From an uncultured Legionellales bacterium (GTDB lineage: Bacteria; Pseudomonadota; Gammaproteobacteria; Eutrophobiales; Eutrophobiaceae): 64,000 nt of DNA. Of the stretch, positions 11,331-33,154 are shown in pieces; position 1 is the first letter of the stretch; every line of letters begins with the position of its first letter. Position numbers and translations under genes: made by a program. The notes beneath the pieces are model-generated. The model was not told where the DNA came from and did not search any database. It saw only the letters and a program-made list of their open reading frames with translations. The stretch covers positions 5,950 to 69,949 of the forward strand of contig CAJWRJ010000002.1 in the NCBI GenBank assembly GCA_913046215.1. Direction: 5' to 3'.

Positions 11331-11473
11331 TTTTTTATTATACTGGAGAATCCAACTATTGCCGACGAACCTATTTTTTTTCTATATAATAGCCATTTTT
11401 GACTAATTTTTGGTTATTCTAAAGCTATTAAATCAATAATGATAATTTTTACGAGGTTATTATAAATTAAAAA

Positions 11474-11821
11474 ATGTCTTTTTTAAGCTCGTTCAATTAT
11501 TGGGCGGTTATTATACTAATGATGATTGGATTTTACATCATAATTGCAAATAATAATCTCTTAAAAAAAATAATTGGTATCAATATTTTTCAGACATCAA
11601 TTTTTATAATGTTTATTTCTATGGGCAAGGTAGTAGATGGAACAGCCCCAATATTAAATGAAATAAATACATTATATTCGAGTCCACTTCCCCATGTGTT
11701 GATACTAACCGCTATTGTGGTCGGTATATCTACTACAGCTCTTGGTCTTGCTATAATTATTAGAATTCATTCAGCTTTTGGCACTATTGATGACGACGTA
11801 TTAAAGAAGGAAATGGAGTGA
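11474..11821 (+). CDS. mrpC: Mrp/Mnh-type cation:proton antiporter subunit C-like (NuoK-like) membrane protein
   Basis: 115-aa 3-TM protein collinear with Bacillus MrpC (PLPHVLILTAIVVGISTTALGLAIIIR vs PLPQALILTAIVISFGVTSFLLVLAYR). Its stop overlaps the next gene's GTG start (GTGA). Confidence 0.75.
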   Translation: MSFLSSFNYWAVIILMMIGFYIIIANNNLLKKIIGINIFQTSIFIMFISMGKVVDGTAPILNEINTLYSSPLPHVLILTAIVVGISTTALGLAIIIRIHSAFGTIDDDVLKKEME

Positions 11822-13302
11822 TTAGCTCAAATTTACCCGCATTACAAGTAGTATTACCACTTCTTGCTGCACCACTTTGTATTATTTTACATAACCGTAA
11901 ATTAACATGGATTTTAACTATAACAACTTGTATTACGTGTTTTGTTATTTCCTGTTCATTGCTGAATAGAGTATTAATTGAAAACACCATTACATACTCA
12001 ATGGGCGGATGGCTTGCTCCTTGGGGAATTGAATATTACATTGATAAGCTAACAGCCTATATGCTTTTAATTATTAGCGCTGTTGCTACTCTTGTTTCAA
12101 TTGGTGCTAAAGAGAGCATCGAAAACGAAATAGCTTCGGATCGGATATATTTATTTTATACTACTTTTTTACTTAATCTTACAGGTTTACTGGGAGTTAT
12201 TATTACTGGTGATGCATTTAATCTTTTTGTATTCATTGAAATCGCATCATTGTCTTCATATGCAATAATTAGTTTAGGAAAAGACAAGCGAAGCCTTTAT
12301 TCTGCTTTTAAATACTTAATTTTTGGAACTATTGGTGCAAGTTTCATATTAATTTCTGTTGGCTTGCTTTACGCTGTAACAGGCACGCTTAATATATCTG
12401 ATTTATCTCAGCAATTAGCGCATACAGAAAATAGTGCTACGATAACAACTGCATTTGTATTTTTCATAATTGGCATTGGAATAAAAGCAGCAATTTTTCC
12501 TCTACATTTATGGTTACCAGATGCCTATACTCACTCACCATCAATCGTTTCAACATTTCTAGCTGGAACAACAACAAAAGTTTTTATATATGTACTAATA
12601 AGATTTATCTATTCTTTATATGGCTATGAATATAGTTTTTATTTAGAGTCATTTAATTACTTATTAATGATTGTTGCATGTGGAGCAATAGTCTATGGCT
12701 CAATTTTAGCTATAAAGCAAGATAGTATTAAAAGATTATTAGCCTATTCAAGTATTTCTCAAATTGGGTATATGATTTTGGGGCTTGCATTAATAACCGA
12801 GCTTGGACTTGCTGCATGCTTAACGAATATGTTTAATCATGCTTTTATAAAAACTGGTTTGTTTTTAGCAGTGGCAGTGATTATTTACTACTATCAATCT
12901 GATTCAATTAAACAGCTTTCAGGCATGGCTAAGACTTCGCCACTTATCTTTATATTATTTTTAATTTCTGGATTAAGCATTATTGGCGTCCCTCTTACAT
13001 CTGGCTTTATCAGTAAATGGTATTTAATAAAGGCTTCCATTGATGCTGGTTACTGGTTTTTTGTTCTTGTAATTGTTTTTTCATCTGTATTAGCAATAAT
13101 TTATATTGGACGAATTATTGAATCAGCTTATTTTAAATCAGAGGAAAATAGAATTTTAATTTATGATGAAAATAGAAAAACACCATATCTGCTATTTTTC
13201 TCATTATTAATCTTCACATTCATAAATATTTATTTTGGTATAGAGACAACACTTAATGTTGATATAGCAATGCAAATTTCAAGTGATCTAATTAATAAAT
13301 GA
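11818..13302 (+). CDS. Mrp subunit D-like / complex-I NuoM-N-type antiporter-like membrane subunit (paralog 1)
   Basis: 494 aa, ~14 TM. Proton-pump family motifs WLPDAYTHSPS and TFLAGTTTK. GTG start coupled to mrpC. Confidence 0.75.
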   Translation: MISSNLPALQVVLPLLAAPLCIILHNRKLTWILTITTCITCFVISCSLLNRVLIENTITYSMGGWLAPWGIEYYIDKLTAYMLLIISAVATLVSIGAKESIENEIASDRIYLFYTTFLLNLTGLLGVIITGDAFNLFVFIEIASLSSYAIISLGKDKRSLYSAFKYLIFGTIGASFILISVGLLYAVTGTLNISDLSQQLAHTENSATITTAFVFFIIGIGIKAAIFPLHLWLPDAYTHSPSIVSTFLAGTTTKVFIYVLIRFIYSLYGYEYSFYLESFNYLLMIVACGAIVYGSILAIKQDSIKRLLAYSSISQIGYMILGLALITELGLAACLTNMFNHAFIKTGLFLAVAVIIYYYQSDSIKQLSGMAKTSPLIFILFLISGLSIIGVPLTSGFISKWYLIKASIDAGYWFFVLVIVFSSVLAIIYIGRIIESAYFKSEENRILIYDENRKTPYLLFFSLLIFTFINIYFGIETTLNVDIAMQISSDLINK

Positions 13303-13303
13303 T

Positions 13304-14770
13304 ATGAATAATCAATTACTTATTATTTCTTCATTATTTATACCAATATTTGGCATCATTTTTATTTTATTTTTTAAGAAGCATAGCAATTTGAGAGAAG
13401 TGTCTACATTAATTACCTCAGTTGCATTAATTTATTGTATTTATTCACTTCTACCTCAAGTTTTAGATGGGTTACGTCCTGAATTAGAATTATTAAGGAT
13501 AACTAATAATCTGATACTTCATTTTCATGTTGAACCACTGGGGATGTTGTTTGCATGTATTGCCTCATTTCTATGGTTAATAAATTCTATTTATTCGATA
13601 GGTTATATGCGTGCAAATAACGAGAAAAATCAAACTCGTTTTTATGTATTTTTTGCTCTAGCAATAGCAAGTACTATAGGTATAGCTTTTTCAGCTAATT
13701 TATTTACATTATTTATTTTTTATGAATTTCTCACATTATCCACTTACCCACTAGTAACTCACAAAGGTAGCGAGAAGGTTAAGCGCGCAGGTCGTGTGTA
13801 TCTTGGTGTTTTGCTTACAACATCAATATGTTTGTTTCTCCCTGCAATTATTTGGACCTATAGCTTAACTGGATCAATTGAATTTACTAATAATGGAATT
13901 TTCAATAGGAGTCATCAACCCCTAATAATCGTATCGTTATTATTAATATTTGCATATGGGATTGGAAAAGCAGCGCTTATGCCAATTCACTACTGGCTGC
14001 CATCTGCAATGGTCGCACCAACTCCAGTTAGCGCATTACTACATGCAGTTGCAGTTGTTAAGGCGGGCGTATTTAGTATTGTCAAGATTGTGATATATAT
14101 TTTTAGCCCAACGCTATTATCCGAGGTTACTAGTGTTAATTTTTTACTTTATTTATCTGGCATAACAATTATTTTTGCGTCAATAATTGCATTACGCTCA
14201 GATAACTTAAAAAGGCGATTAGCGTATTCAACAATAAGTCAATTATCCTATGTTATATTAGCAACTGCATTACTAGCATCTATTTCTATTATGGGTGCTA
14301 TCCTACACATACTTGCCCATGCATTTGGTAAAATTACATTATTTTTTGCAGCTGGCTCTATATATACTGCTACAAAGAAAACGGAGGTAAGTCAATTGAA
14401 TGGAATTGGCAGAGCAATGCCATGGACCATGTTGGCATTTGCTGTGGGTAGCCTGTCTATGATTGGCATTCCTCCAACTGCTGGTTTTTTGAGTAAGTGG
14501 TTTATCTTGCAAGGCGCGATTGATATACAATCATGGTTTGCAATTTCTGTTATTGTTATAAGCACATTATTAAATGCTGCCTATTTCCTACCAATTATCT
14601 ATGTTGCATTTTTTCGTGATCCAGATACTAAAGATGGGTATTTATATAATGAGGCACCAATTTTGATCGTTTTAACAGTATTATCTACAGCTCTGGTATC
14701 AATTATTTTGTTTTTCTTCCCTCAAATTCCAATCGAGCTTATAAGTCTATTAATAGGGGAGGGGTTATGA
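13304..14770 (+). CDS. Mrp subunit D-like / complex-I antiporter-like membrane subunit (paralog 2)
   Basis: 488 aa. Motifs WLPSAMVAPTPVSALLHA and KAGVF. Starts 2 bp after the previous stop. Confidence 0.75.
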   Translation: MNNQLLIISSLFIPIFGIIFILFFKKHSNLREVSTLITSVALIYCIYSLLPQVLDGLRPELELLRITNNLILHFHVEPLGMLFACIASFLWLINSIYSIGYMRANNEKNQTRFYVFFALAIASTIGIAFSANLFTLFIFYEFLTLSTYPLVTHKGSEKVKRAGRVYLGVLLTTSICLFLPAIIWTYSLTGSIEFTNNGIFNRSHQPLIIVSLLLIFAYGIGKAALMPIHYWLPSAMVAPTPVSALLHAVAVVKAGVFSIVKIVIYIFSPTLLSEVTSVNFLLYLSGITIIFASIIALRSDNLKRRLAYSTISQLSYVILATALLASISIMGAILHILAHAFGKITLFFAAGSIYTATKKTEVSQLNGIGRAMPWTMLAFAVGSLSMIGIPPTAGFLSKWFILQGAIDIQSWFAISVIVISTLLNAAYFLPIIYVAFFRDPDTKDGYLYNEAPILIVLTVLSTALVSIILFFFPQIPIELISLLIGEGL

Positions 14771-15006
14771 AGAAAAACTGGTTTTATAGAAAATCATCTA
14801 TTAAAAAGCTGTATATTTATTCAGCAGTTTTTTTAGGCATAGTGATTATCACTGAATATTTTATTACTATGCATCCACATTTTAAAATTGAAAGTATTTT
14901 TTCTTTTTATGCAATTTTTGGTTTTTTATCTTGTGTTGTTCTAATTTTTATTGCAAAAATACTTGGTTTTTTTATAAAACGTAAGGATGATTATTATGAT
15001 ATGTAG
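14767..15006 (+). CDS. small 2-TM membrane protein of unknown function (Mrp-cluster associated)
   Basis: 79 aa with two hydrophobic helices. ATGA overlap with the upstream gene and a 20-bp overlap with the downstream gene suggest translational coupling. No recognisable family by eye. Confidence 0.4.
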   Translation: MKKNWFYRKSSIKKLYIYSAVFLGIVIITEYFITMHPHFKIESIFSFYAIFGFLSCVVLIFIAKILGFFIKRKDDYYDM

Positions 15007-16660
15007 TTTTCTTCATCCTGGTTTGTTACTTATTTTTTCTGGATTATTGATTCCTTTTTTTTCTGGATTTAGACGAACTTTATTTATTTGTATTATCCCG
15101 CTTATATCGTTATTTATTGTCTGGAATTTATCATTTGGAAGTAGTTGTACTGTCAGTTATCTAGGCTATGAATTAATTTTAATAAATTTCGATTCATTGA
15201 GTAGACTTTTTGCCACTGTATTTTGTATTACAGTTCTAGTAGCAGGATTTTTTTGCTGTAAACAAGCTAAATCTACTGAACTTGCTACTGCTTTTGTTTA
15301 TGCTGGTGCTGCTACATCAGTTATTTTAGCTGGTGATTTAATAAGTCTTTTTCTGTTTTGGGAATTAATGGCCCTTGCATCTACCTTATTAATATGGTCT
15401 TCACAAAATAATAATTCATATCAGGCAGGGATGCGCTATATTTCTATTCATTTACTCGGTGGAGTTATATTGATGTGTGGCATTGTTGGCCATGCTCATG
15501 AAACAAATTCTATTGCATTTACACAAATGCAATTAAATAGTATTTCAACTTGGTTGATTCTTTTCGGTTTCTTATTAAATGCTGGAGCACCTCCACTGTC
15601 AGCTTGGCTTGCTGATGCTTATCCTGAAACCTCGTTTAGCGGCATGGTATTTTTAAGCGCTTTCACTACTAAAACAGCAGTCTATGTTTTGATGAGAGGA
15701 TTTCCTGGTACAGATTTACTAATTTATATTGGCTTATTTATGATTTTTTATGGGATTATTTATGCATTACTTGAAAATGATATGCGTCGAATTCTTGCTT
15801 ACAGTATTATTAATCAGGTTGGTTTTATGGTTTGTGGTATTGGTATTGGCACTGAGATGGCACTAAATGGAACTGCAGCTCATGCATTTACACATATCGT
15901 TTATAAAGCCTTGTTGTTGATGTCAGCCGGTTCAGTTTTATACATGACAGGAAAAAGAAAATGTAGTGAACTGGGCGGGCTAATACAGTCAATGCCAATT
16001 ACGGCAGTTTGTGGAATTATTGGTGCGCTTTCTATATCTGCGTTTCCACTTACCTCAGGTTTTGTAAGTAAATCAATGATTTCTCAAGCTTCTGTAGATG
16101 AGCACTTATTGTGGGTATGGTTGTTATTACAGGCAGCTTCAGCAGGTGTTTTTTTACATGCGGGCATAAAATTCCCATGGTTTGTTTTTTTTCAAAAGGA
16201 CAGTGGATTAAGACCATCTGATCCACCAAAAAATATGCAAGTTAGCATGATATTTTTTGCCATGATTTGTATTTTAATTGGTATTTTTCCTAACATTCTT
16301 TATAGCATGTTGCCATACCCAGTTTTTTATCAGCCTTTTACATCTGCACATATTATTAGCCAACTACAATTACTTTTATTTTCTGGTTTAGCTTTTTTTG
16401 TGATGCTTCCACTAATGAAAAGAACATTGACTATAAGCTTGGATTTCGACTGGTTTTACCGGTGCTTAATACCTAAATTATCCTCGATAATTTTTAATTA
16501 CTTATCTAAAGTTGATATAGCTATAAAGGAAGCACTCCGTAATAAAATAGTTTTTATATTTTATAGAATAAAAATTAATTATCATTTAAGTTTAAGCAAT
16601 AGTATTTTAATAGTAATGATATTATTTTCTGTATTATTATTTTATTATTTTATAAACTAA
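14987..16660 (+). CDS. MrpA/NuoL-type antiporter-like membrane subunit lacking the MrpB-like C-terminal domain (paralog 3)
   Basis: 557 aa. Motifs WLADAYPETSFSG and AHAFTHIVYKALLLMSAGSV. It is longer than the two D-like paralogs but much shorter than canonical MrpA (~770 aa). Confidence 0.7.
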   Translation: MIIMICSFLHPGLLLIFSGLLIPFFSGFRRTLFICIIPLISLFIVWNLSFGSSCTVSYLGYELILINFDSLSRLFATVFCITVLVAGFFCCKQAKSTELATAFVYAGAATSVILAGDLISLFLFWELMALASTLLIWSSQNNNSYQAGMRYISIHLLGGVILMCGIVGHAHETNSIAFTQMQLNSISTWLILFGFLLNAGAPPLSAWLADAYPETSFSGMVFLSAFTTKTAVYVLMRGFPGTDLLIYIGLFMIFYGIIYALLENDMRRILAYSIINQVGFMVCGIGIGTEMALNGTAAHAFTHIVYKALLLMSAGSVLYMTGKRKCSELGGLIQSMPITAVCGIIGALSISAFPLTSGFVSKSMISQASVDEHLLWVWLLLQAASAGVFLHAGIKFPWFVFFQKDSGLRPSDPPKNMQVSMIFFAMICILIGIFPNILYSMLPYPVFYQPFTSAHIISQLQLLLFSGLAFFVMLPLMKRTLTISLDFDWFYRCLIPKLSSIIFNYLSKVDIAIKEALRNKIVFIFYRIKINYHLSLSNSILIVMILFSVLLFYYFIN

Positions 16661-16664
16661 AATA

Positions 16665-17651
16665 TTACTCATATCCCTCTTTATTAAACCAACTTACGGC
16701 ATCATCTAATGCCTCAGATGCTGGTCTTGCATTGTAACCTAACTCTCTTTTTGCTTTATCACTAGAAAAATACATTATTTTTTTTGACATTTTTACGCCA
16801 TCAGTTGTTACAAGAGGTTCACTATGAGTAAATTTCGAGATACACTCCATAATCCATGCAATAGGTAAGATAAAATTGTGCGGCAATTTTATTTTTGGAG
16901 GATTTATTTTTTCAATAGAGCATAAATAATTAATTATTGATTCAAGAGACATGTTGTCCCCACCTAGAATATAACGTTCCCCAATTTTTCCTCTCTGCAT
17001 TGCGAGTAGGTGTCCATGAGCTACATCATCAACATGTGCAATATTCAATCCAGTTTCAACATAAGCTGGCATTCGGTTTCTAATCGTATCAAGAATAATT
17101 TTTCCAGTTGGGGTAGGTTTTATATCTCCCGGTCCGACAGGTGTAGAGGGGTTCACTATTGTAACGGGACATGCTTCGTTTTTTATTAGATCCATTACAG
17201 CTTCTTCTGCCAAAAATTTTGATTTTTTGTAAGTCCCCACCATGTTTTCAAGTGTTGAAAAAGTTGTTTCATTTGCAGAGGTGCCATCTTGATTGGTGCC
17301 GAGAGTTGCTACGCTACTAGTGTATACAATTTTTTTCACTCCCGCTTTTTTCGCTACCTTTATTAGATTTCTAGTTCCATCAATGTTAGTTTTAAACATA
17401 TCTTTAGAATCTGGAACCCATAATCTATAGTCTGCTGCAACATGAAAAACTTGTTCACAGGAATCAACAGCAGATTCCAATGATTCGATATTTTGTAAAT
17501 CACCTTCAATTACCTTAATATCAAAATCGAAAAGATTATGTGTATTGGCACCGGGTCTTTTCAATACCTGTAAGTCATAATCCTGCTTAACGAGCAGTCT
17601 TAATAAAGCAGAACCTACAAATCCAGTCGCACCTGTAATTAATGCTTTCAT
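16665..17651 (-). CDS. hpnA: hopanoid-associated NAD-dependent sugar epimerase/dehydratase
   Basis: N-terminal Rossmann motif GATGFVGS and an SDR extended-family YxxxK. It is the last gene of the shc-hpnG-hpnN operon. Confidence 0.7.
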   Translation of the reverse strand: MKALITGATGFVGSALLRLLVKQDYDLQVLKRPGANTHNLFDFDIKVIEGDLQNIESLESAVDSCEQVFHVAADYRLWVPDSKDMFKTNIDGTRNLIKVAKKAGVKKIVYTSSVATLGTNQDGTSANETTFSTLENMVGTYKKSKFLAEEAVMDLIKNEACPVTIVNPSTPVGPGDIKPTPTGKIILDTIRNRMPAYVETGLNIAHVDDVAHGHLLAMQRGKIGERYILGGDNMSLESIINYLCSIEKINPPKIKLPHNFILPIAWIMECISKFTHSEPLVTTDGVKMSKKIMYFSSDKAKRELGYNARPASEALDDAVSWFNKEGYE

Positions 17652-17655
17652 AAAA

Positions 17656-18264
17656 TTATTTTTTAAGTATTAGATAACTTCTTATTACGAAAAAATAGAA
17701 TATTGGCGCACCAATGGCTGCCGCAGTTATGAAGTAATATTCTAATTTATAATATGTAATGATTGGGAGAATATACAATGAATCCTCTGCTTCGAAACCA
17801 CTTTTGAATGGTTGACGGGCCTTATTTTTACCAATCTCTTTTTCGATTTTATTTCTTGTATAGAATATTGCTGCAACTGAAACACCAGCAACGATTCCTA
17901 TTGGTAGCGCATAAAAACCTAGACTGCTATGAATAAGGCCAATACTAATACCAATAAATAAAAATATATTAACAAGAGCATCAGAGATAAGGTCGTACGT
18001 ATGTCCTTTAATACTAGTTTCATTTTTTAATCTCGCTAACTCTCCATCAGCATGATCTAAAAAATTTGAAAACACAAAACAACACGCACCAGCATTACTG
18101 TATAAATATTCACCAATTGAAAAGAAAAACCCAGCTAAAAGTCCAAAAAATAATCTTAATGTTGTTAAATAATTGGGTGTAACGAAAGTATTACGAAGTG
18201 GATATATCAATCTATATGCGATTTGAGCATCCCATGGTCTACTATCTGATGGATCAATTAGCAT
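17656..18264 (-). CDS. CDP-alcohol phosphatidyltransferase family protein (paralog 1, between hpnN and hpnA)
   Basis: 202-aa polytopic protein with the complete catalytic motif D-x2-D-G-x2-A-R-x8-G-x3-D-x3-D (DHADGELARLKNETSIKGHTYDLISD). 6-bp gap to hpnN and 4-bp gap to hpnA. Confidence 0.8.
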   Translation of the reverse strand: MLIDPSDSRPWDAQIAYRLIYPLRNTFVTPNYLTTLRLFFGLLAGFFFSIGEYLYSNAGACCFVFSNFLDHADGELARLKNETSIKGHTYDLISDALVNIFLFIGISIGLIHSSLGFYALPIGIVAGVSVAAIFYTRNKIEKEIGKNKARQPFKSGFEAEDSLYILPIITYYKLEYYFITAAAIGAPIFYFFVIRSYLILKK

Positions 18265-18270
18265 TTTGCT

Positions 18271-20868
18271 TTATTTGTATGAAGAATCTCGCCATATCAA
18301 AAACGAGGGTAATACTATCATAGTTGCGAACATCATGGATATTAATCCCACTGATAAAAGTAATCCCATGCTTGCAGTGCCTTGATGTGATGAAAACGCA
18401 AGATTTCCGATACTAAATATTGTTGTTAGGCTACTTATAATGACACCCTTCATTGAGCTAGTTATATAAATATTAGTTTGTGTATTTTTTTCCTCATAGA
18501 ATCGCTCCGTAATATGAATACCACTATCAACGCCAATTCCAAGTAGTAACGGAAGACCGATGATATTCGCAAAATTCAGGGGAATATTAAAGAAAAGCAT
18601 GAATCCCAATGTGAAAATACTACCTATTAATACGGAAATAAGAATAATAAGCGCATCATATTTTATTTTTATTAGAAGCATCAATAGTATTGCTATTGCA
18701 ATAAAAGCACATAAAAACGCGAATTTGAATGCACTTTTTACAGCATTTCCAGCTTCAATACTTATAATTGGAGAACCAATAACATCTTTATTGAAATCTT
18801 GAAGTTGATAAACAAAATTTCTCATTGATATATTATTATTTAAATCTTCCTTAGGTAAAATTTTTATTAAATATTTTTCATCACTTACCCATCTTTTATA
18901 AATTTCATCTGGAATATTATTAATCGTAACTTCTTCAGCATTTAATGCATCTGATAATGCTTTTATCCGTCCTGGAAAATTTTCTAAAAATTGATTTTCA
19001 ATAGCTTTAATTTTTTTATCATCATCATCATTTAAATTAGATAATAGATTATTCAAGTTGCTATTTAGTAAAATCATCTGATTATCAGAATTATGCACCA
19101 GATAGTTATCTAATATAGTTTTTAGTTTTTTTATAGCAGCTATTCTATGATTTTTACTTATCTCTAATTCAGACGATCTGTTTTCTAAATTACCCATCAA
19201 TAAGCTCATTTCATCAATAATAATGAGTTTATCATTTTGTTCTTCAGGAATAAGATTATGTATAGATATTGCATTATCAACTAGAGGTAATAATTTAATT
19301 TCATTCTTTTTCAGATTGGTTTGATCAGCAGATTCAACTATTAGTATCCCTTCCCAAGGTGATGTAGAGCTATCTTTAAGTAGTTCCTGATACGTTTTTA
19401 CTGATTCATTTTTAGGATCTTGCAGATTTAATCTATTTTCATCGAAATCTATTTTATTTATGAATAATAAAATAAAAGAAACTATTAAAAATATAAATAT
19501 GAGAATAATTTTTGAATATTTATACGGTAACCAGCATAAAAAATTTATAATATTATTATTTTTTATAATATTAGCAGATCTTAGTGTTTTAATTGATGTA
19601 TAGCTTAGTAATGCAGGTAACAATGTTATGGTTAGGATAAAGCTAATTATCATTCCAGATCCTGCTATCCATCCAAGTTCAGCGACACCTGTATAGCTTG
19701 TTGGTATAAATGCATAAAATCCAATAGCCGTTGTTAAAGCACATAAGACTAGAGGTTTCATTATAAATTTTAATGTGTTTTTAATAATCTTAGTGCGATT
19801 TAACTCGGAAATAGATTCTTCTCTATATCTAAGGGCCATGTGTATTGCAAAATCAATTCCCAATCCGATATATAATACAGCGAATGCTATAGATATTAGA
19901 TTTAAAGTTCCAACTGTAATTGAAGCGAAGGCAGTTGTTATTATTAACCCAACTATAAGTGTCGTAAGGCAAGCTACTACAATACGAAAGGAACCAAGAC
20001 CAATGGTTAAAATAGTTGCGACGAGAATAATCGATAGAAAAATTGCTTTTATATTTGCGTTAGACACACTTTTTAGTTCTTCATAAGCTAAAACCTCGCC
20101 TCCTGTTAATTTGATATTAACTTTCGAATTTTTATATGGTTCTATAGCTTTTCGTATATATTCAATAGTATTTTCATTAGGTAATAGACTGTCATCAATT
20201 GTATTTATTTGTAGTTCAATAAATTCCCTATATGTATTCTTTTTTTCATATTTTGGATCCATTAATCTTTGCCATGAAACTGAATAATTTATATCACCGA
20301 ACGCAAGATTTATTTCAGATAGTATTGGATTTAATTGAATAGATTTATCATCTTGTTTAGCTTCAATAGCATCTCCGAGCATATCAAATAATCCACGTAA
20401 ATTTCTATCTTCAAGTAATGATCCTAAAAAAGGTTGAATTTTAGCGAGATTATCAGATAAGTCTTGTAATTCATCGTGTTCAAGAAATAGAAATGAAGAT
20501 TCCTTGAAGTAGGAAAAATCACTTTGATAGTAGATATTTTTTATGAAATTATTATTTTTTAATGAGGTAGAAATTTTTTGAGCAGTATCACTTGCTAAAT
20601 CTGGTGTTTGAGCTTCAATAACAATGATAATGTTATCTAAAAATTGTGGAAATAATTTTTCATACTGGATATCAAGCTGCCTCCAGTGTAACTTTTCCGA
20701 CAACATCTCACTGGTGTCTGTACTAAAACTTAAATTATTCTTAATAGTACTTAATGATAATATTGTAATTAGAGTGACAGAGAATATTATTAGAATTCTT
20801 CTTTTATCTAGAAACCTGCTCCAGAATGAAACAAGCCTTTCATTACGATATGTATTTTTTTTATTCAC
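18271..20868 (-). CDS. hpnN: hopanoid-associated RND/MMPL-family transporter
   Basis: 865 aa with two 6-TM bundles and large periplasmic loops (MMPL/RND topology). Embedded in the hopanoid operon. Confidence 0.75.
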   Translation of the reverse strand: MNKKNTYRNERLVSFWSRFLDKRRILIIFSVTLITILSLSTIKNNLSFSTDTSEMLSEKLHWRQLDIQYEKLFPQFLDNIIIVIEAQTPDLASDTAQKISTSLKNNNFIKNIYYQSDFSYFKESSFLFLEHDELQDLSDNLAKIQPFLGSLLEDRNLRGLFDMLGDAIEAKQDDKSIQLNPILSEINLAFGDINYSVSWQRLMDPKYEKKNTYREFIELQINTIDDSLLPNENTIEYIRKAIEPYKNSKVNIKLTGGEVLAYEELKSVSNANIKAIFLSIILVATILTIGLGSFRIVVACLTTLIVGLIITTAFASITVGTLNLISIAFAVLYIGLGIDFAIHMALRYREESISELNRTKIIKNTLKFIMKPLVLCALTTAIGFYAFIPTSYTGVAELGWIAGSGMIISFILTITLLPALLSYTSIKTLRSANIIKNNNIINFLCWLPYKYSKIILIFIFLIVSFILLFINKIDFDENRLNLQDPKNESVKTYQELLKDSSTSPWEGILIVESADQTNLKKNEIKLLPLVDNAISIHNLIPEEQNDKLIIIDEMSLLMGNLENRSSELEISKNHRIAAIKKLKTILDNYLVHNSDNQMILLNSNLNNLLSNLNDDDDKKIKAIENQFLENFPGRIKALSDALNAEEVTINNIPDEIYKRWVSDEKYLIKILPKEDLNNNISMRNFVYQLQDFNKDVIGSPIISIEAGNAVKSAFKFAFLCAFIAIAILLMLLIKIKYDALIILISVLIGSIFTLGFMLFFNIPLNFANIIGLPLLLGIGVDSGIHITERFYEEKNTQTNIYITSSMKGVIISSLTTIFSIGNLAFSSHQGTASMGLLLSVGLISMMFATMIVLPSFLIWRDSSYK

Positions 20869-20909
20869 TTCAAATCAATTAGTTTATTTTGTAGGAATTT
20901 ATTCTAGAT

Positions 20910-21659
20910 TTAAACTTTAAAAATATATTCTTTATTAGGGTTACGTTCAATATCAGGAGGATAGCTAAGACGTTTATCAGAATAGTACTTTTCGCGACTA
21001 TCGCCTTCCGACATTGCATTATATGTTACATAGAGCACTCTTCTTTTAACATGAGTTAGATTTGGCCCAGAGCGATGCGGTGCGTATGAATCAAAAAATA
21101 TAGCATCACCGGGTTCTGTTTGTACGGGTTTGTAATCAAGCGCATTTTCCTCAAGGGGCGCCCATTGCTCTCCAATTAAACCTTTATCATGATGATTGGC
21201 AGCTATTTCAAGACATCCATTTTCAGTATTTGAGGCATCAATAGTTACTAATGCTGTAATATGTAGCTTTGCATACTTGTCCCATCCTGCCTGAACATCC
21301 TGATGAGCCTTAAATCCATCACCACCTGGCATTTTAAAATTTATTTTATCCTTGAATAGAATTGCATTTTCTCCAAATAGTTCAGATGTTATGTTTTGAA
21401 TTTTTCCAGATATGAAAAGCTCACTAAAACCTTTATGAAAGGGTTCTAAATTTTCCATACGCGATAGTATTCGTTTTTTTTCATTAATCTTACTTTGTTC
21501 AAAATACATCATATATTTATTTTTAATCTCAGGATAATTTGCAACCTCATCAACCCATTGTGTGATCTCATTCAGTTCTTCTCCGTAGTACAATTTACGT
21601 ACTATTAAAAAACCAGTATTTTTGAAGTTTTGAATTTGTTTATTAGATAATCTCATCAT
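20910..21659 (-). CDS. phytanoyl-CoA dioxygenase (PhyH)-like Fe(II)/2-oxoglutarate-dependent oxygenase
   Basis: 249 aa with a PhyH-like layout. Candidate H-x-D...H facial triad (HQD ... APHRSG). Lies between hpnG and hpnN in the same operon. Confidence 0.55.
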   Translation of the reverse strand: MMRLSNKQIQNFKNTGFLIVRKLYYGEELNEITQWVDEVANYPEIKNKYMMYFEQSKINEKKRILSRMENLEPFHKGFSELFISGKIQNITSELFGENAILFKDKINFKMPGGDGFKAHQDVQAGWDKYAKLHITALVTIDASNTENGCLEIAANHHDKGLIGEQWAPLEENALDYKPVQTEPGDAIFFDSYAPHRSGPNLTHVKRRVLYVTYNAMSEGDSREKYYSDKRLSYPPDIERNPNKEYIFKV

Positions 21660-21674
21660 AAAATTTTAATAAAT

Positions 21675-22397
21675 TTATAATTTATTATATATAAAAAAAT
21701 CTCTTTTCTTAAATTCATCATACATATTATTTAATGATGATAATGACTTAATATAGCTCTTTATTAGGGAGATTAATTGAAATAATTGAAATGGATTTTG
21801 TAATGATGATTTTAAAAAACTTTTTATTTTAATTTTTCCGAAGTTATCAATATTTTCTAAAAATATAGATGGTATATTTGAATATGCATCATCTATTATC
21901 ACACGCGCTGATACAAATTTTATTTTTTTTTCAAGAGAAATTTTAGCTATAGCTGCACTTTCCATATCAACTGCTAATGCTTTTGTTTGGTTTGATAATT
22001 CCCTTTTTTTAATTGATGAATCAAGAATTTTATTAGTTGTCACAATTTTGCCATTTAATACTTTGTATGGTGTAGTCTGAAGATGGGAACTGATAGAGTT
22101 TCTCCATTCATTCGAAGTATAAAATATTTCTTTATCATTTTGTATAGTATCAGCTAGAACGATATCACCTGTTTTTAGTGATTGATCTATACCTCCTGCC
22201 ATTCCCCAACTTATCAATCCATCTATATTTTTTTTAACTAACTCCTTCGCTGCTGATGTTGCAGCATCAAATCCAATTCCGGATATGTATAAAAAAATAT
22301 TCTTTTCAATTTGTATTGATTCTTTCAGAGCTAATTTTTTTAACCGAAAGCATTTTGCTTCAGATGGTATAGCTATAATAATTCCAATTCTTTTCAA
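21675..22397 (-). CDS. hpnG: hopanoid-associated nucleoside phosphorylase/nucleosidase (PNP/UDP family)
   Basis: 240-aa PNP_UDP_1-like fold (GIIIAIPSEA ... GMAGGI). Immediately downstream of shc with a 1-bp gap. Confidence 0.7.
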   Translation of the reverse strand: MKRIGIIIAIPSEAKCFRLKKLALKESIQIEKNIFLYISGIGFDAATSAAKELVKKNIDGLISWGMAGGIDQSLKTGDIVLADTIQNDKEIFYTSNEWRNSISSHLQTTPYKVLNGKIVTTNKILDSSIKKRELSNQTKALAVDMESAAIAKISLEKKIKFVSARVIIDDAYSNIPSIFLENIDNFGKIKIKSFLKSSLQNPFQLFQLISLIKSYIKSLSSLNNMYDEFKKRDFFIYNKL

Positions 22398-22398
22398 G

Positions 22399-24342
22399 TT
22401 ACTTTTCTAATATGTTTCGATATCGAGCAAGCGCCCAAAGAGGAAAATATTTCGAATAGCCATGATATTTTAAATAAAAGACACGGGGAAATCCTGGCGC
22501 TGTAAATGAATTGTCATACCATTGCCCGTTTGATAATTGAGTCGATAGCAGATAATTTACTGCTTTTTTAACAGACGGATTTTTTTCCTCTCTGGATGCT
22601 AATAGCGAGAGCAACACCCATGCAGTCTGAAAAGCGGTACTTTTGAATGGCCTATGTATTTTAGGAGGATAATAACTGTCATTGCTTTCACCCCATCCCC
22701 CATCATCATTCTGAGTAGAAACAAGATATTTGACGGCTTTACGAATATAGTCTTGTTGTGGATCTTGTCCTGCAATCTCAAGAGCGGTCAGTACTGACCA
22801 AGTACCATATATATAATTAGTACCCCAACGACCAAACCAAGAACCATTTTCCTCCTGCTCAGTTTTGAGATATTCAATTGCGCTATTGATTTGTTTTTCA
22901 TACATCTCTACATCAGCTAGACTTAATAGAGCTATTGCTCGTCCGGTTACGTCTGCAGTAGGGGGGTCAAGTAAAGCACCGTGATCTGCAAATGGAATTT
23001 CATTAAGATAATAATGTGTATTATCGGTATCGAACGAACCAAAACCACCATTTCGAGACTGCATACCAGCAACCCAGTTAGCAGCACGATCTATTGATTT
23101 AGAATATATGTTCTTTTTTGTTCTATGCATAGCCCATGCAACGACCGATGTATCATCTAAGTCAGGATAATAATAATTGCTATATTGAAAAGCCCAACCA
23201 CCACCAGCTAATTCTGGTTTTTGTATACGCCAGTCACCGGGTTCATTACTTAACTGACGTTCTTTAAGCCAATCCAGTGCATTTTTAATTTCCGTTGTTG
23301 TATTTTTTTCATTTTCAGTTTCTATTAAGGCATGACTTACTAGCGCGGTATCCCATATAGGCGACATACAAGGCTGGCAATACATTGATGTTCCGTTATC
23401 TTTCAATAATGAATCAATTGCTTGACGAGCTAACTTTCTTTTTGGATCACTTTTTGGGTATCCAAGTACAACTAACGATTCATATACATTAACCATTGCA
23501 GGAAAAATACCACCAATACCGTGTTTTTCATTCATCCTTGCTAAAAACCATTGCTCACATTTTCTTATAGAATATTGTCGTATAAATTTAGGAACTAATT
23601 TTTCAGCTAAACGTCCGAAACGATCAAGAACCAAAAATGCACGTTTTAGAGGTGTTGTTACTTTAAAATAGTTTAATTCATCTTCTGGAGGCGTAATAAA
23701 TAATTCTCTTATATCAATACCTCTTGGATTAGATGCTTTTGGTTTCATTGTGCACAAAACAAATAAAGGCACCATGACAGTACGAGACCAATAGGAGACT
23801 TTGTTAATATGAAATGGAAACCACTTAGGTAAAATTATAACTTCAGCAGGTATAAAAGGTGTTGCTCTCCAAGGCACCTGTCCAAATAGTGCCATCGTGA
23901 TTCTCGTGAATACATTACACATTGCCGCACCACCATGATTTAAAATCATAGTTTTTGCACGAATCATATGTTCTTCATGAGGCTCATCACCTATTAGTTT
24001 TAAAGCAAAATAAACTTTAACAGAGCAACTTAAATCAAAATTACCTCCAGTGTATAAAGACCAGCCACCTTCTTCATTTTGTTGTGAACGTAAATATTCA
24101 GCTATTTTCTCTTCTTTATCGTTATCAATTTCCCCAGTGAAGTGGTTCATTAAAATATATTCAGCAGGAATAGTGCAATCAGCCTCAAGCTCATATACCC
24201 AATGACCATCATTAGATTGTTTTGACAGTAGGTTTTTTTTAGCAGAATTAATTGCTTTATTTAAGCTTAACGTGAAGTCTTTATTGCGTATATTATTAGC
24301 AGACTGGCTGAGCAAGCTCTCGTTTTGATTATCTAATGTCAT
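22399..24342 (-). CDS. shc: squalene-hopene cyclase
   Basis: 647 aa. DxDDTA catalytic motif present as DLDDTS. Multiple QW repeats (QNEEGGW, QSRNGGFGSF, QEENGSWFGRW, QNDDGGWGE, QLSNGQW). Confidence 0.92.
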   Translation of the reverse strand: MTLDNQNESLLSQSANNIRNKDFTLSLNKAINSAKKNLLSKQSNDGHWVYELEADCTIPAEYILMNHFTGEIDNDKEEKIAEYLRSQQNEEGGWSLYTGGNFDLSCSVKVYFALKLIGDEPHEEHMIRAKTMILNHGGAAMCNVFTRITMALFGQVPWRATPFIPAEVIILPKWFPFHINKVSYWSRTVMVPLFVLCTMKPKASNPRGIDIRELFITPPEDELNYFKVTTPLKRAFLVLDRFGRLAEKLVPKFIRQYSIRKCEQWFLARMNEKHGIGGIFPAMVNVYESLVVLGYPKSDPKRKLARQAIDSLLKDNGTSMYCQPCMSPIWDTALVSHALIETENEKNTTTEIKNALDWLKERQLSNEPGDWRIQKPELAGGGWAFQYSNYYYPDLDDTSVVAWAMHRTKKNIYSKSIDRAANWVAGMQSRNGGFGSFDTDNTHYYLNEIPFADHGALLDPPTADVTGRAIALLSLADVEMYEKQINSAIEYLKTEQEENGSWFGRWGTNYIYGTWSVLTALEIAGQDPQQDYIRKAVKYLVSTQNDDGGWGESNDSYYPPKIHRPFKSTAFQTAWVLLSLLASREEKNPSVKKAVNYLLSTQLSNGQWYDNSFTAPGFPRVFYLKYHGYSKYFPLWALARYRNILEK

Positions 24343-24398
24343 TTTTATTATTTATTATAGGTTTTTATTTGTTCACAAACCTTTTTCGAGAGATATTC

Positions 24399-25454
24399 TT
24401 AAAGTTTCTCATGAATATTAACTCTAGGCAAATGTCGCCCAGTAAGTTTAATAAGAAATCTCAATATAGCATCATTTTTTACGAAAATGCTTGTAATTAG
24501 AATGGTTAATTTTACACTAAGATGACTAATTTTTACTTCTTTTCCATTGGTAAAATTTGGGTTTTTTCTAATTTTTTCCAGCGTTAACACGGCCATTCCA
24601 ATAGCCCATAAGCAGAATTTACGCAAACCTATTTCATTTTTTGGGATCAATAAAGTATAAGTCAATGCATTTTCAAGGTGAGCATATGCAACTCCCAATA
24701 ATTCAATTAATGCATTATTAAATTCATTTATATTCTGATTAGGTTTTTTAGTGCTTATGTCAATACCATATTTTTTAAAATGATCTTTTGGTAGCCAACA
24801 TGCTCCCCTACTATGATCTTCCCAAATATCCTTCAGGATATTTGTCATTTGTAATCCTTGCCCAAACGAAACAGCTAGCTCCATTAATTTTTTTTGATTT
24901 TTATCAATATCAGTTGAATAATCACAAAATAACTCAGTTAACATTTCACCCACAACCCCAGCTACATGGTAGCAATAATCATTCATGTCTTTTATATTCT
25001 TTAATCCATTTAATGATTCCTCGATTTGATATTTAGCCATACCCTTACACATAATTGAAACGCAACGATTTAAGGCACTTAATTGTCGCTTGTTAAAACT
25101 ATGTGTTACACGGATAACTTTTTCTGTATTAGCAATTAAGTTATGTTCTGCATCAGTTGCATTTGGTGAGAGTATATCGAATAGTTTTTTAGAAAAAATA
25201 TTAACATTTTTATTATTTCTTACTACATCAATAAACATATCAGCGTACTCTTTCTTTTGTTCAATAGACATTGATTTATCATCTTCAATTGAATCTGCTA
25301 TTCGACAAAGAAGGTATGCATTAGATACAACCAGTCTTAATTTCTCTGGTAATTGGGGTATTGTAAGAGCAAATGTACGGGAAACATGTTGTAATATCAT
25401 ATGTTGGTAAGCAACATCATCCGGAACTGTGTTAAACTCTTGCGTGGATTTCAT
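24399..25454 (-). CDS. sqs: squalene synthase (single-enzyme, eukaryote-type farnesyl-diphosphate farnesyltransferase)
   Basis: 351-aa isoprenoid_synt_type2 enzyme with VSRTFALTIPQLP (the SQS SRSF-type motif) and Asp-rich ADSIEDD. First gene of the operon ending in hpnA. Confidence 0.8.
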   Translation of the reverse strand: MKSTQEFNTVPDDVAYQHMILQHVSRTFALTIPQLPEKLRLVVSNAYLLCRIADSIEDDKSMSIEQKKEYADMFIDVVRNNKNVNIFSKKLFDILSPNATDAEHNLIANTEKVIRVTHSFNKRQLSALNRCVSIMCKGMAKYQIEESLNGLKNIKDMNDYCYHVAGVVGEMLTELFCDYSTDIDKNQKKLMELAVSFGQGLQMTNILKDIWEDHSRGACWLPKDHFKKYGIDISTKKPNQNINEFNNALIELLGVAYAHLENALTYTLLIPKNEIGLRKFCLWAIGMAVLTLEKIRKNPNFTNGKEVKISHLSVKLTILITSIFVKNDAILRFLIKLTGRHLPRVNIHEKL

Positions 25455-25565
25455 ATTTACAAGTTTTAATTTTTAATAAGAAACATGCACACATTAATAT
25501 AAGTATAGAAATTAGGCAAAGAGTATTTTGATAAAGCTAGTGATTTCAGTATAAAAAATTAATAA

Positions 25566-26300
25566 ATGAATATATATAATTTAAATAATAATGAAATTGA
25601 TCTCTCCACAAAGAATATTTATGTTCTATTATTAAATTTTTCCATGTTAAATTATCAAGATTACATGACATATTTATCTGATGATGAAATACAAAGAGTT
25701 GATAACATAAATAATAAAATTAAAAAAAATCAATTTGTTATTTCTAGAGCCATTGTAAAGAAGCTATTATCGAAATATTTGAGTAAAATACCAAATCAAA
25801 TTGAATTCTCATACAACAAACATGGAAAACCATTTGTACCTGAAAAATATAATAATCATAGTTTAGAGTTTAATATTTCACATTCAGATATATATGGATT
25901 AATAGCAATTACATTAGACAATAAGATAGGTGTTGATATACAAAGGGTTAATCATGACATTAATATAGATTCATTATCTGAACGTTTCTTTAGTGAAGAT
26001 GAAAAAGAACAATTAATGAAATTTGATAAAAATAAAAGAGCAGATGTTTTCCATAATTGCTGGGTTAAAAAGGAATCATTTATTAAAGCAATTGGATCAG
26101 GTGTAGCATATGGTCTTGATAATTTTAGTGTCTCATTAGAGGAAAACCATCGTAATTATGTCTTAGATTTAAAAAATAAAAAATGGTACTGTTATAAATT
26201 AATTGAATTTGAAAATTACAAAACTGCTTTAACAATGGAAACAAAATCTAATATTTTTCTATCATATAAAGAAAATTATATCAGTAATATTCTGCACTAA
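25566..26300 (+). CDS. Sfp/EntD-type 4'-phosphopantetheinyl transferase
   Basis: Motifs GKPFV, IGVDIQ and W-x-x-KES-x-x-KA-x-G (WVKKESFIKAIGSG). Confidence 0.75.
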   Translation: MNIYNLNNNEIDLSTKNIYVLLLNFSMLNYQDYMTYLSDDEIQRVDNINNKIKKNQFVISRAIVKKLLSKYLSKIPNQIEFSYNKHGKPFVPEKYNNHSLEFNISHSDIYGLIAITLDNKIGVDIQRVNHDINIDSLSERFFSEDEKEQLMKFDKNKRADVFHNCWVKKESFIKAIGSGVAYGLDNFSVSLEENHRNYVLDLKNKKWYCYKLIEFENYKTALTMETKSNIFLSYKENYISNILH

Positions 26301-26306
26301 AAATAA

Positions 26307-27101
26307 TTGAGTATATCTAGTATGAAAAATACTACGCATAATTGGTATGACCTTCCAACATATTATGACGTTTCATTTTCATATGATATGAAAGATGAAT
26401 TGTCCTTTATTAGTAACGTATTTAGAAAATATTTAATATTGAATTCACCAAAATTGCTCGAGCCAGCATGTGGAACAGGACGTTTAATTGTCCCATTGGT
26501 AAAAAAAGGATTTAATTGTTCTGGATTTGATTTAAATGAAAATGCATTATTATATTTAAAAGAAAAACTTAATCGTAATAATTTGTATGCAAATATAAAG
26601 AAAGCTGATATGTCTACTTTTGAAGTAGAGAATAAATATGATGGAATTTATTGTACAGTCGATACATTTCGACATCTTCTTACGGAAAAAAAAGCAATAC
26701 AACACTTAGAAAATGTTTCGTTCGCACTAAAGAAAAATGGCATATATATATTAGGATTACATATAATTCCTAGACATAAAAAAATTGAAAAAATAGTCAA
26801 GTGGACTGCAAGAAGAGGTTCTTTAACAGTTAAAACAATCATGTCAATGATAAAGCTTGATATGAAAAGAAGAAGAGAGACATTGAGGGTAGTCTTAAAA
26901 ATTAAAAAAAATACTACTAGAGAATCCTATGTATCTATATATCAGTTAAGGACATATACATTGCCTCAGATATTAAACATAATAAATAAAGTAGAGGATT
27001 TAGAAATTATCAATACCTACAATGAGTACTATGATTTATCTAGTCCAATAATTTTAAATTCTGACTCAGATTATGCTGTATTCTTACTTCGTAAAAAGTA
27101 A
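26307..27101 (+). CDS. class I SAM-dependent methyltransferase
   Basis: Motif I LEPACGTGRL and an acidic motif II (GFD). 264 aa. Confidence 0.7.
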   Translation: MSISSMKNTTHNWYDLPTYYDVSFSYDMKDELSFISNVFRKYLILNSPKLLEPACGTGRLIVPLVKKGFNCSGFDLNENALLYLKEKLNRNNLYANIKKADMSTFEVENKYDGIYCTVDTFRHLLTEKKAIQHLENVSFALKKNGIYILGLHIIPRHKKIEKIVKWTARRGSLTVKTIMSMIKLDMKRRRETLRVVLKIKKNTTRESYVSIYQLRTYTLPQILNIINKVEDLEIINTYNEYYDLSSPIILNSDSDYAVFLLRKK

Positions 27102-27111
27102 CTCTCGCAAG

Positions 27112-27699
27112 CTAATTAGTTATTTTTTTTAATAAATAATATGTAAATATTGCAAATATAGGAGCACCTACCGATGCACCGATGAGAAAAGGAAGATGCC
27201 AGTTTAACCAAACTATCGGGGCAAAAAGATATATGATATCGTCGAAATCAAAACCAGCTATTCCTGTGTATGCTTTTTCTCCTGTGGCTCTCTTTTTTTG
27301 ATCTATTTTTTCAGCAAAAATCTCAGAAAAAATTACGCCAATACACGCAGACAAACCCATCATTATTGTCAGATAGTTAGGTAATTTATCTTGTAGGCCT
27401 ATCCCGATTGCTAGAAAAAAAAGTGCCGTAATAAAAGTGTCAGTGTAATAGTCAAATTTATGACCTAAAGAACTAATATTTCCAGAGATTCTAGCAAGCT
27501 CTCCATCAGCTCTATCAAGAAAAGTTGATATTATCCACATTACACCACCCAAAATATTCATTTTTAATGCAAAAGCAACACATGCTGCCAATCCTATTAT
27601 TAGCCTTAAAAGTGTGACGTGATTTGGAGTGATAGGCGTATTGACTAACGGTTTAATACATACTCGAGCAATCTTATGAGTCCAAGAGTCACCAATCAT
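27112..27699 (-). CDS. CDP-alcohol phosphatidyltransferase family protein (paralog 2, last gene of hpnI-J-K operon)
   Basis: 195 aa. Full catalytic motif DRADGELARISGNISSLGHKFDYYTD. Shares N-terminal ITPNxxTLLRL and C-terminal GAPIF segments with paralog 1. 2-bp gap after hpnK. Confidence 0.8.
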   Translation of the reverse strand: MIGDSWTHKIARVCIKPLVNTPITPNHVTLLRLIIGLAACVAFALKMNILGGVMWIISTFLDRADGELARISGNISSLGHKFDYYTDTFITALFFLAIGIGLQDKLPNYLTIMMGLSACIGVIFSEIFAEKIDQKKRATGEKAYTGIAGFDFDDIIYLFAPIVWLNWHLPFLIGASVGAPIFAIFTYYLLKKITN

Positions 27700-27701
27700 T
27701 T

Positions 27702-28433
27702 TTATGAGTTGAAGCCCGAAAGTTCAATATTAAATTTTTCGATAGTTCTTTTTATTCGAGCGTGTATAAGGGCTTTGTATTCTTCAACAAACTCGTAGTT
27801 ATAAAGTGTATTATCATTTTCTGTTGAGGGGTGAGTATAAATTTCAGTTATACCATCTTTTATATGCGGAATAATACGCACAAGTTTATCAATATTCATA
27901 TGCCCACTATCATGTAGACCATAAATATAATTGTTAAAAATAATCTTATTGTTTTTACATTTTTTCTCCATTTGATATGTAAATATCGAAAAAAATAACC
28001 ATCTAATATATCTCATAAAAAATTCTTTTTTATTATAAATAATTGAATTAAGAGGAGGTTCATTTGGAATACGGATGGCTGTTAAATTATACTCCCTTCC
28101 AATTTCTATAATTAAATTAAATATAGTTGGGTGAAGGTGCATATGATTATGTGCATTTACATGATCTAGTTTTAAACCTGTTTTTTTAAATGCTTTAAAT
28201 TGCGCCCGTATTTCTTTTTTTAGTTCAGATCTCGCTTTGTTATTGAAAAAATAATTTACTCCACACCAAAATTTATTATTACTAAACTCACATTTACTAT
28301 TTACCAAATTTGGTATTTCGACAATTGGTAATGAAGATTTCCCATTAGATAGTACAATATGCAAACCTACGTTTAATTCAGGATTTTTTTTTGCAATTTT
28401 TACTGCATGGCTGGCTTCTGGTGCAGCAATCAT
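27702..28433 (-). CDS. hpnK: hopanoid-associated YdjC-family deacetylase HpnK (annotated from first ATG; the true N-terminus very probably extends ~35 codons upstream to a CTG at 28538, see findings)
   Basis: YdjC-like core. The in-frame upstream sequence encodes the family's catalytic N-terminus KKVIVTGDDFGLSVPVNNAILKSFTNGILTTTSL, which aligns to ChbG LLIVNADDFGLS...GIVTSTT. Confidence 0.7.
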   Translation of the reverse strand: MIAAPEASHAVKIAKKNPELNVGLHIVLSNGKSSLPIVEIPNLVNSKCEFSNNKFWCGVNYFFNNKARSELKKEIRAQFKAFKKTGLKLDHVNAHNHMHLHPTIFNLIIEIGREYNLTAIRIPNEPPLNSIIYNKKEFFMRYIRWLFFSIFTYQMEKKCKNNKIIFNNYIYGLHDSGHMNIDKLVRIIPHIKDGITEIYTHPSTENDNTLYNYEFVEEYKALIHARIKRTIEKFNIELSGFNS

Positions 28434-29956: not shown

Positions 29957-29978
29957 ATTATCATTAATTCAGTTTGTG

Positions 29979-33149: not shown

Positions 33150-33154
33150 CTTTA

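Follow-up and report, generated by a model that had tools for sequence, protein, structure and literature searches.

How should a cluster of five genes for an Mrp-like membrane module be understood when the genes for the remaining subunits of such a cation/proton antiporter are not encoded beside it? The cluster in question lies on a 64-kb stretch of DNA from an uncultured Legionellales bacterium (contig CAJWRJ010000002.1, positions 5,950 to 69,949), in the following called the window, to whose first nucleotide all coordinates refer; its genes are designated C, D1, D2, the small gene (for a protein of 79 aa), and D3. In a preliminary description, the module was said not to fit classical Mrp and was regarded as a possible new minimal cation/proton-translocating unit. 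This classification is not supported, because the same genes are found in the same order as the distal (3′) half of a widespread and already annotated Mrp operon of the 'group 3' type, which encodes three pump subunits and has the gene order of the membrane arms of Mbh and Mbs, namely mrpE-F-G-B'-B-C-D1-D2-x-D3, with x being the small gene.

This assignment is based on the relatives of D3, more than 569 of which were found in a scan of one genome per species. Synteny was read in the best 80 loci, which belong to Alpha-, Beta-, and Gammaproteobacteria and to one Longimicrobiales metagenome-assembled genome (MAG), and the order C-D1-D2-small-D3 is kept in essentially all of them as well as in metagenome loci. 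The five-gene arrangement that had been described as an orphan is thus conserved, and in 57 proteobacterial loci it is directly preceded, on the same strand, by four conserved gene clusters with the Pfam names MrpE (PF01899), MrpF (PF04066), MrpG (PF03334), MbhD plus MbhE (DUF4040, B'), and MnhB (PF04039, B), the last two being fused in some relatives. Complete operons were also found on metagenome contigs and in low-GC genomes of approximately 1 Mb (L091-L093, L097, L099, L102, and L109). Between the window and the genomes with complete operons, sequence identity amounts to 47-66% for C, 39-50% for D1, 48-62% for D2, 33-56% for the small protein, and 58-71% for D3. In public annotation, these proteins appear as Na+/H+ antiporter subunits B and D. 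'Group 3' Mrp clusters have been described as having an irregular gene order and several mrpD genes (PMC5703873; PMC7784846), and an 'MrpEFGBBCDD complex' is mentioned for the genome of the Solemya velum symbiont (PMC4287430); a biochemical or structural study of the three-pump subfamily was not found in the literature. A sister subfamily with the order E-F-G-B'B-C-D-D-D, in which no small gene is present between D2 and D3, was observed at L103/L104, L106, and L107/L108. The L106 operon is located on a 1.1-Mb contig of 24% GC and the L107/L108 protein is encoded on contigs of up to about 200 kb with 24-25% GC; at L106 and L107, the operon adjoins a head/capsid gene cluster resembling those of phages or gene transfer agents.

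All five open reading frames (ORFs) of the preliminary description were recovered, tightly packed on the plus strand. C (11474..11821) encodes an MrpC/NuoK-like subunit of 115 aa with three transmembrane (TM) helices, D1 (11818..13302, GTG start) an MrpD/MbsH/NuoN-type antiporter-like subunit of 494 aa, and D2 (13304..14770) an extra antiporter-like subunit of 488 aa with a NuoL/NdhF/MrpA-N flavour and without a C-terminal extension. They are followed by the small gene (14767..15006) for a conserved two-TM subunit of 79 aa that is specific to this Mrp subfamily, and by D3 (14987..16660) for an MrpA-N/NuoL-type distal subunit of 557 aa comprising TM15, a lateral helix, and TM16. As read from the nucleotide sequence, C and D1 overlap by GTGA, and D2 and the small gene by ATGA with a GGAGG ahead of it; these junctions and a 20-nt overlap of the small gene with D3 had been recognized before, whereas the supposed 2-bp gap between D1 and D2 is a spacer of a single nucleotide between a TGA stop codon and an ATG. 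The start codon of D3 is ambiguous (14987 or 14996; ATGATTATTATG), the overlap with the small gene being 20 nt in the first case and 11 nt if the ATG at 14996 is used. Public gene calls take the latter, giving 554 aa, which is why an exact database look-up of D3 found the 554-aa form on record and no entry for the 557-aa form. An AT-rich intergenic region of 143 bp (11331..11473) between the divergent SCO1 gene and mrpC is the presumed promoter region of the five-gene operon. A scan of the locus for promoters and terminators performed no better than on shuffled sequence, and no specific promoter is claimed.

The description of the products as an MrpC-like protein, three antiporter-type subunits, and a small two-TM protein was confirmed by Pfam and NCBIfam models and by conservation. 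C matches PF00420 (E = 1.3e-20) and the NCBIfam MrpC model NF005621 (138 bits, cutoff 126), and its best solved relative in a PDB search is MbsG (6u8y_G, 1.9e-20). Throughout the family, MrpC carries a glutamine (residue 40) at the site of the conserved TM2 glutamate of NuoK and MbsG (Glu37 in MbsG). The three D proteins match PF00361 with E values of 9e-70 (D1), 7e-58 (D2), and 8e-47 (D3). D1, whose best PDB matches are MbsH (6u8y_H, 6e-65) and MrpD (6z16_D, 3e-60), corresponds to the NuoN position, and its residues Glu141 (TM5), Lys223 (TM7), Lys254 (TM8), and Lys400 (TM12) are invariant in 77 of 77 genomes. D2 also gives a weak Proton_antipo_N match, has its best PDB matches with MbhH, NdhF, NuoL, and MrpD, and carries the NuoL-type histidine in TM8 in addition to the lysine. 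Its residues Glu141, Lys222, His247, Lys253, and Lys398 do not vary among the 17 genomes of the clade lacking the proximal half (see below) and are kept in 59-60 of 60 genomes with complete operons, three of the channel positions being conserved in all but one of the latter. The full charged axis formed by the TM5 glutamate and the lysines of TM7, TM8, and TM12 is therefore present in both D1 and D2. A W-L-P-D-A-type motif had been assigned to all three subunits; it is present in D1 (WLPDAYTHSP) and D2 (WLPSAMVAPTP), and D3 departs from it (WLADAYPETS) by a proline-to-alanine replacement in the TM7 motif that occurs in the clade of the window only. In addition, the position of the TM7 lysine is occupied in D3 by an asparagine (Asn198) in 79 of 80 genomes, a hallmark of the family that the window shares.

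D3 scores above the threshold of the NCBIfam equivalog NF009310, 'Na+/H+ antiporter subunit D' (690 versus 564 bits), and its best PDB match by sequence is MbsH' (6u8y_X). In an AlphaFold model with a mean pLDDT (predicted local distance difference test) of 73.5, the antiporter core is followed by a TM helix (residues 453-476), a helix of 40 residues (488-527), and a terminal TM helix (536-556), and the top Foldseek matches of this model are MrpA (7qru_A and 6z16_A), NdhF, and NuoL, which are the distal subunits bearing a lateral helix. As modelled, D3 is the N-terminal two-thirds of MrpA, lateral helix included. Its 557 aa, which had been noted as few for the largest paralog, are those of this N-terminal module; in the relatives, a gene of its own (B', MbhD/MbhE, PF13244/PF20501) encodes the counterpart of the C-terminal domain of MrpA, and this gene is absent from the window. 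For the 79-aa protein, neither Pfam nor NCBIfam gave a family match. It is nevertheless the product of a real gene, which is conserved in about 80 genomes, shows invariant motifs such as KR.D.YYD at the C-terminus, and has a ratio of nonsynonymous to synonymous substitution rates (dN/dS) of 0.09-0.24. The TM segments of the protein are predicted at approximately residues 15-35 and 41-72, and hhalign comparisons with MrpE, F, G, B, and C and with NuoJ and NuoK gave no significant match, the controls indicating a low power of this comparison. On a complete MAG chromosome (CP070738.1, L026, 9699-11665), the small gene and D3 form an isolated pair with opposite-strand genes upstream, which marks a further break point within this operon family and hints that the small protein is a partner of D3.

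The distal half stands alone in the window, as had been stated in the preliminary description. A tblastn search with about 250 sequences from relatives against the 64 kb revealed no MrpE, MrpF, MrpG, B', or B, filter-free searches of the window and the related loci with locally built hidden Markov models gave a best E value of 0.08 (positive controls, 1e-18 to 1e-147), and Pfam annotation of essentially every ORF of the window detected no MrpB, E, F, or G. The same layout is found in the closest relatives, at L001-L011, L081-L090, L094, L095, and L113, which represent MAGs of marine 'Legionellales' and other Gammaproteobacteria as well as Tara or JGI marine contigs, with GC contents of 31-50%. 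These loci are monophyletic in trees of C plus D1, of D2 plus D3, and of all four proteins, so that one ancestral event suffices to explain the layout. One of the marine metagenome contigs (L087, MDSY01026256.1) encodes a small protein that is 99% identical to that of the window and four other proteins that are 100% identical, which places the population of the window in a public ocean metagenome assembly, presumably from Tara Oceans according to the accession prefix MDSY01.

That half of the ancestral operon is missing at the locus, together with fragmentary states in decaying genomes such as that of L101 (see below), might suggest that the five genes are a decaying, non-functional remnant. 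All five ORFs, however, are intact in about 20 genomes of the clade with synonymous sites near saturation, and comparison of the window with five relatives yielded dN/dS values of 0.06-0.07 for C and of 0.06-0.11 for C and D1-D3 together, the range including the small gene extending to 0.24. Within the clade, none of the canonical channel residues of D1 and D2 varies. At matched D3 divergence, the conservation of D1, D2, and the small protein equals that in genomes with complete operons, and that of MrpC, which ranks first among the five proteins in the clade, is even higher. Judged from these substitution patterns, the five genes are functional in the clade and under strong purifying selection, and the selection analysis effectively refutes decay, which we consider scarcely credible.

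A second explanation, highly improbable in our view, is that the module serves as an accessory of another energy-converting complex, either as a set of extra pumps for complex I or as part of a CO2 hydration system of the DAB type or of a complex of the Mbh/Hyf/Ehr type. It draws on the homology of D1-D3 to NuoN, NuoM, and NuoL and on the genomic neighbourhood. As had been noted before, the module is transcribed divergently from copper-chaperone genes, the upstream genes on the opposite strand being SCO1, PCuAC, and the phosphatidylserine decarboxylase gene psd, and beyond these three genes, 2.1 kb upstream of the module, nuoG-N is located. In the low-GC subclade and at L005, L006, L009, and L113, the module always lies just downstream of nuoA-N. 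This adjacency is lost at L007 and L011, however, where the five-gene module is unchanged, and the nuo operon has the complete canonical gene set, including NuoJ, K, L, M, and N of its own, to the last three of which the D proteins of the window are only 25-33% identical. Moreover, in at least 57 relatives the same proteins are part of an Mrp operon without redox genes, and no DabA/DUF2309, NuoB/C/D/H/I-like, or hydrogenase gene adjoins the module in the window or the related loci apart from the complex I operon, which agrees for the window with what had been reported earlier and is supported by the ORF annotation. A DAB system was rejected since there is no DabA (DUF2309-type) gene among the annotated ORFs of the window and the module contains three PF00361 genes and MrpC instead of a single PF00361 gene; a complex of the complex I, Mbh, Mbs, Hyf, or Ehr type was rejected since neither a NuoH-like anchor nor NuoB/C/D/I-like peripheral subunits flank the module here or in the relatives. 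The readings as complex I accessory, hydrogenase-type complex, and pseudogenes were thus discarded on gene content, synteny, and dN/dS.

Among the closest known systems are 'group 3' Mrp clusters, which have the same Pfam families, with MrpC followed by several MrpD/NuoL-like subunits and with MrpA split into separate genes for its antiporter-like and MrpB-like parts. The cyanobacterial cluster mrpCD1D2EFGAB of Aphanothece halophytica was shown to encode a Na+/H+ antiporter, and a Nitrospira cluster contains two extra NuoM/L-like genes (PMC5703873; PMC7784846). The module of the window differs from these examples by three pump subunits and the 79-aa subunit, by the order E-F-G-B'-B-C-D-D-x-D in its relatives, and by the absence of E-F-G-B'-B from its own locus. 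With the Pyrococcus furiosus MBS (MbsA-E, G, H, H'; 6U8Y) and MBH (6CFW), the relatives share the order E, F, G, MbhD/E, MnhB, C, D; the closest solved matches of MrpC, D1, and D3 are MbsG, MbsH, and MbsH', and, likewise, an additional antiporter subunit bearing a lateral helix is located distally. Unlike MBS and MBH, the module has no redox genes (NuoB/C/D/H/I-like) and contains three instead of two antiporter-like subunits, and it differs from MBS by the MrpC glutamine in place of Glu37 of MbsG and the D3 asparagine in place of Lys217 of MbsH'. Canonical seven-subunit Mrp antiporters of Bacillus, Anoxybacillus, and Dietzia (7QRU, 6Z16, 7D3U) contain homologs of MrpC, MrpD, and MrpA-N with the same fold, charged axis, and distal lateral helix, whereas the module adds D2 and the small subunit and does not encode the MrpA C-terminal domain, MrpB, E, F, or G at this locus. 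The membrane arm NuoK-N-M-L of complex I has the same number and arrangement of subunits, with one NuoK-like and three antiporter-like proteins, the last of which carries the lateral helix. In complex I this helix comprises about 75 residues, compared to 40 in D3, and the module has no NuoA, NuoH, or NuoJ partners of its own.

We favour, with a probability of about 0.58, the reading that the E-F-G-B'-B half has been relocated elsewhere in the genome and that the products of both transcription units assemble into one complex, which functions as a Na+/H+ antiporter. The ancestral operon would then have been cut once, between mrpB and mrpC, in the lineage of the window. The suggestion in the preliminary description of a membrane arm whose partner is encoded elsewhere comes close to this split operon, the difference being that the partner would be the other half of an Mrp antiporter. 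By analogy with the solved Mrp, MBH, and MBS structures, from which assembly, coupling, ion specificity, and stoichiometry are extrapolated, the five genes would specify the arm that translocates protons in a cation/proton antiporter of the 'group 3' Mrp type, one that has three antiporter-like subunits. MrpC, D1, D2, and D3 would be arranged in a row in the membrane, with the 79-aa subunit probably beside D3 and the lateral helix of D3 running back along the row as a clamp. A buried axis of glutamate and lysine residues would join three proton half-channel pairs, and proton flow would be coupled through MrpC and the MrpA-C/MrpB-like subunits to a path for Na+ (or K+) in the E/F/G/B module. 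The result would be an electrogenic antiporter in which each sodium module is served by more proton channels than in canonical Mrp, an arrangement that might be suited to Na+ extrusion and pH homeostasis at the pH and sodium concentration of seawater.

Relocation is favoured because MrpC is strongly conserved and, to our knowledge, has no role apart from its Mrp/complex I neighbours, that is, apart from the contact with the MrpA-C/MrpB-type subunits that are missing here; its family-invariant polar residues Gln40 and His74 are kept in the clade of the window. In current structural models, Na+ passes through the E/F/G(+B) module, and an adjoining proton path is formed by MbsD, MrpC, and MbsE (PMC8165549), so that the five genes alone would lack a second ion path and a partner module would still be needed. 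Split encoding of this Mrp type has several precedents. One is Ehrlichia, where the subunit set is dispersed over six loci. In Ehrlichia chaffeensis and other Anaplasmataceae, F-G-DUF4040-B-C form one locus, three D genes are present at three loci, and E at another, all being retained in a small genome (PMC8395091). The subunit inventory of Ehrlichia is that of the complete three-pump operon, with E, F, G, DUF4040, B, and C plus three proteins of the D type measuring about 490-520 aa, except that no 79-aa subunit is listed for it (PMC8395091). The break points differ, since in Ehrlichia MrpC is encoded beside F-G-B'-B and each D gene stands by itself, whereas in the window MrpC has remained with all three D genes. 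Further precedents are the isolated pair of the small gene and D3 described above and (G-)B'B-C fragments without D genes downstream at L101 (3574-5235) and L110 (127-1426), whose arrangement resembles that of Ehrlichia. The L101 contig has a GC content of 26% and carries a tetrahydrofolate dehydrogenase gene in three pieces, which suggests a decaying, endosymbiont-like genome.

The rival explanation with the greatest weight, though we consider it unlikely, is that an ancestor of the clade deleted mrpE-F-G-B'-B and that the remaining MrpC-D1-D2-small-D3 became autonomous or acquired a new partner, acting either as a stand-alone cation/proton conductor or exchanger or as a proton arm docked to a different, non-homologous partner. 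Several observations count for deletion and against relocation. E, F, G, B', and B are not only absent from the window but were also not detected, by tblastn or by the filter-free profile searches, within 10 kb in about 20 related loci (approximately 430 kb searched) over the full range of 31-50% GC, including one on a 2.85-Mb contig (ERZ26962017 ctg11100), so that the orphan status asserted for the locus holds beyond the ends of the window. No complementary orphan half was found among the representatives inspected, which, as the inspection was not exhaustive, is weak negative evidence. While a profile search of a collection of 5.8 billion proteins was saturated by Colwellia-like relatives (at least 8000 matches, the top 120 of which were all 72-91% identical to the first query), a search of 50%-identity representatives for the MbhD/E-MnhB family gave 419 strong matches, the best 150 of which were screened by amino-acid composition and similarity. 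The gene context of ten representatives from these 150 contained no E-F-G-B'-B set without C; all were complete or contig-truncated E-F-G-B'B-C(-D) clusters or B'B-C fragments, and of the seven with a low-GC style, four belonged to complete operons, one to a cluster ended by the contig end, and two to B'B-C fragments without D genes. Furthermore, a measured antiport activity was not found in the literature for any member of the three-pump subfamily.

Sequence change within the module points in the same direction. The fraction of family-invariant residues retained is 0.86 for C and 0.90 for D1, compared to 0.97 for D2 and 0.96 for D3; across clades, C and D1 fall short of the expected identity by 4-7 points, with D2 unaffected; and the stem branch of the clade has a length of 0.063 for C plus D1 and of 0.039 for D2 plus D3, a 1.6-fold difference. 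The excess change is confined to this branch and to MrpC and D1, which would be in contact with the missing module, and was followed by renewed strong constraint, which could reflect a changed partner; the clade-specific WLADA motif of D3 counts in the same sense. For individual Mrp-type genes of Ehrlichia, complementation of an E. coli strain sensitive to Na+ has been reported (PMC8395091), and in DAB systems a single PF00361 protein works with an unrelated partner. Several points nevertheless speak against deletion. They include the strong conservation of MrpC and the lack of a second ion path in such a complex, both considered above, and absence from 20-kb neighbourhoods is silent on the rest of the genome. 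A replacement partner is not apparent either: upstream of mrpC, most loci of the clade have SCO1/PCuAC and L007 has chemotaxis and signalling genes, and no candidate for a non-homologous partner is consistently adjacent across the subclades. That the clade truly has no MrpE, F, G, B, and MrpA-C and maintains a 'dissected' proton arm of the complex I/Mrp type working without a sodium module is, in our estimation, a doubtful proposition, slightly more so than the deletion itself.

Downstream of D3, the module lies tail-to-tail with an island of hopanoid genes (16665-34309, mostly on the minus strand). This arrangement was observed at every locus of the clade (L001-L011, L081-L089, and L113, 31-50% GC), persists even where the upstream neighbourhood differs, and was not seen in relatives with complete operons; no paper connecting Mrp with hopanoid genes was found in a literature search. 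The island comprises hpnA, hpnN, PhyH-like, hpnG-like, squalene-hopene cyclase, squalene synthase, and YdjC/hpnK-like genes, and also genes for a B12 radical-SAM protein, GT21, LPG_synthase_TM, and a polyprenyl synthetase. Three CDP-alcohol phosphatidyltransferase paralogs are located in or beside it (17656-18264, 27112-27699, and 32472-33149), one of which is weakly similar to models of archaetidylinositol-phosphate synthase. Elsewhere in the window, an ORF of 373 aa without a Pfam match is present at 55254-56375, and DUF6165 and DUF6607 genes (60360-60755 and 61685-62824, respectively) adjoin lipopolysaccharide and sugar-nucleotide genes.

If the missing half is merely located elsewhere, the five genes are one part of a split operon for an ordinary Mrp antiporter that has been annotated before, and the practical lesson would be that a 'minimal Mrp module' in a window or a MAG fragment can be an artefact of viewing one locus. 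Two features still stand out as unusual: throughout the clade, the proximal half is separated from the module or lost, and the family has hallmarks that have apparently not been studied. This subfamily is widespread in Proteobacteria and in endosymbionts with small genomes and is characterized by three pumps, an asparagine in place of the TM7 lysine of D3, the MrpC glutamine, and a two-helix subunit. Having the subunit count of complex I's membrane arm, it could serve as a natural comparison for the number of proton channels that can be driven per sodium module. If, on the other hand, the sodium module is truly gone, the clade would provide a natural experiment on a chain of antiporter-like subunits acting alone, a situation that has so far been addressed only with engineered fragments (e.g., PMC11496545).

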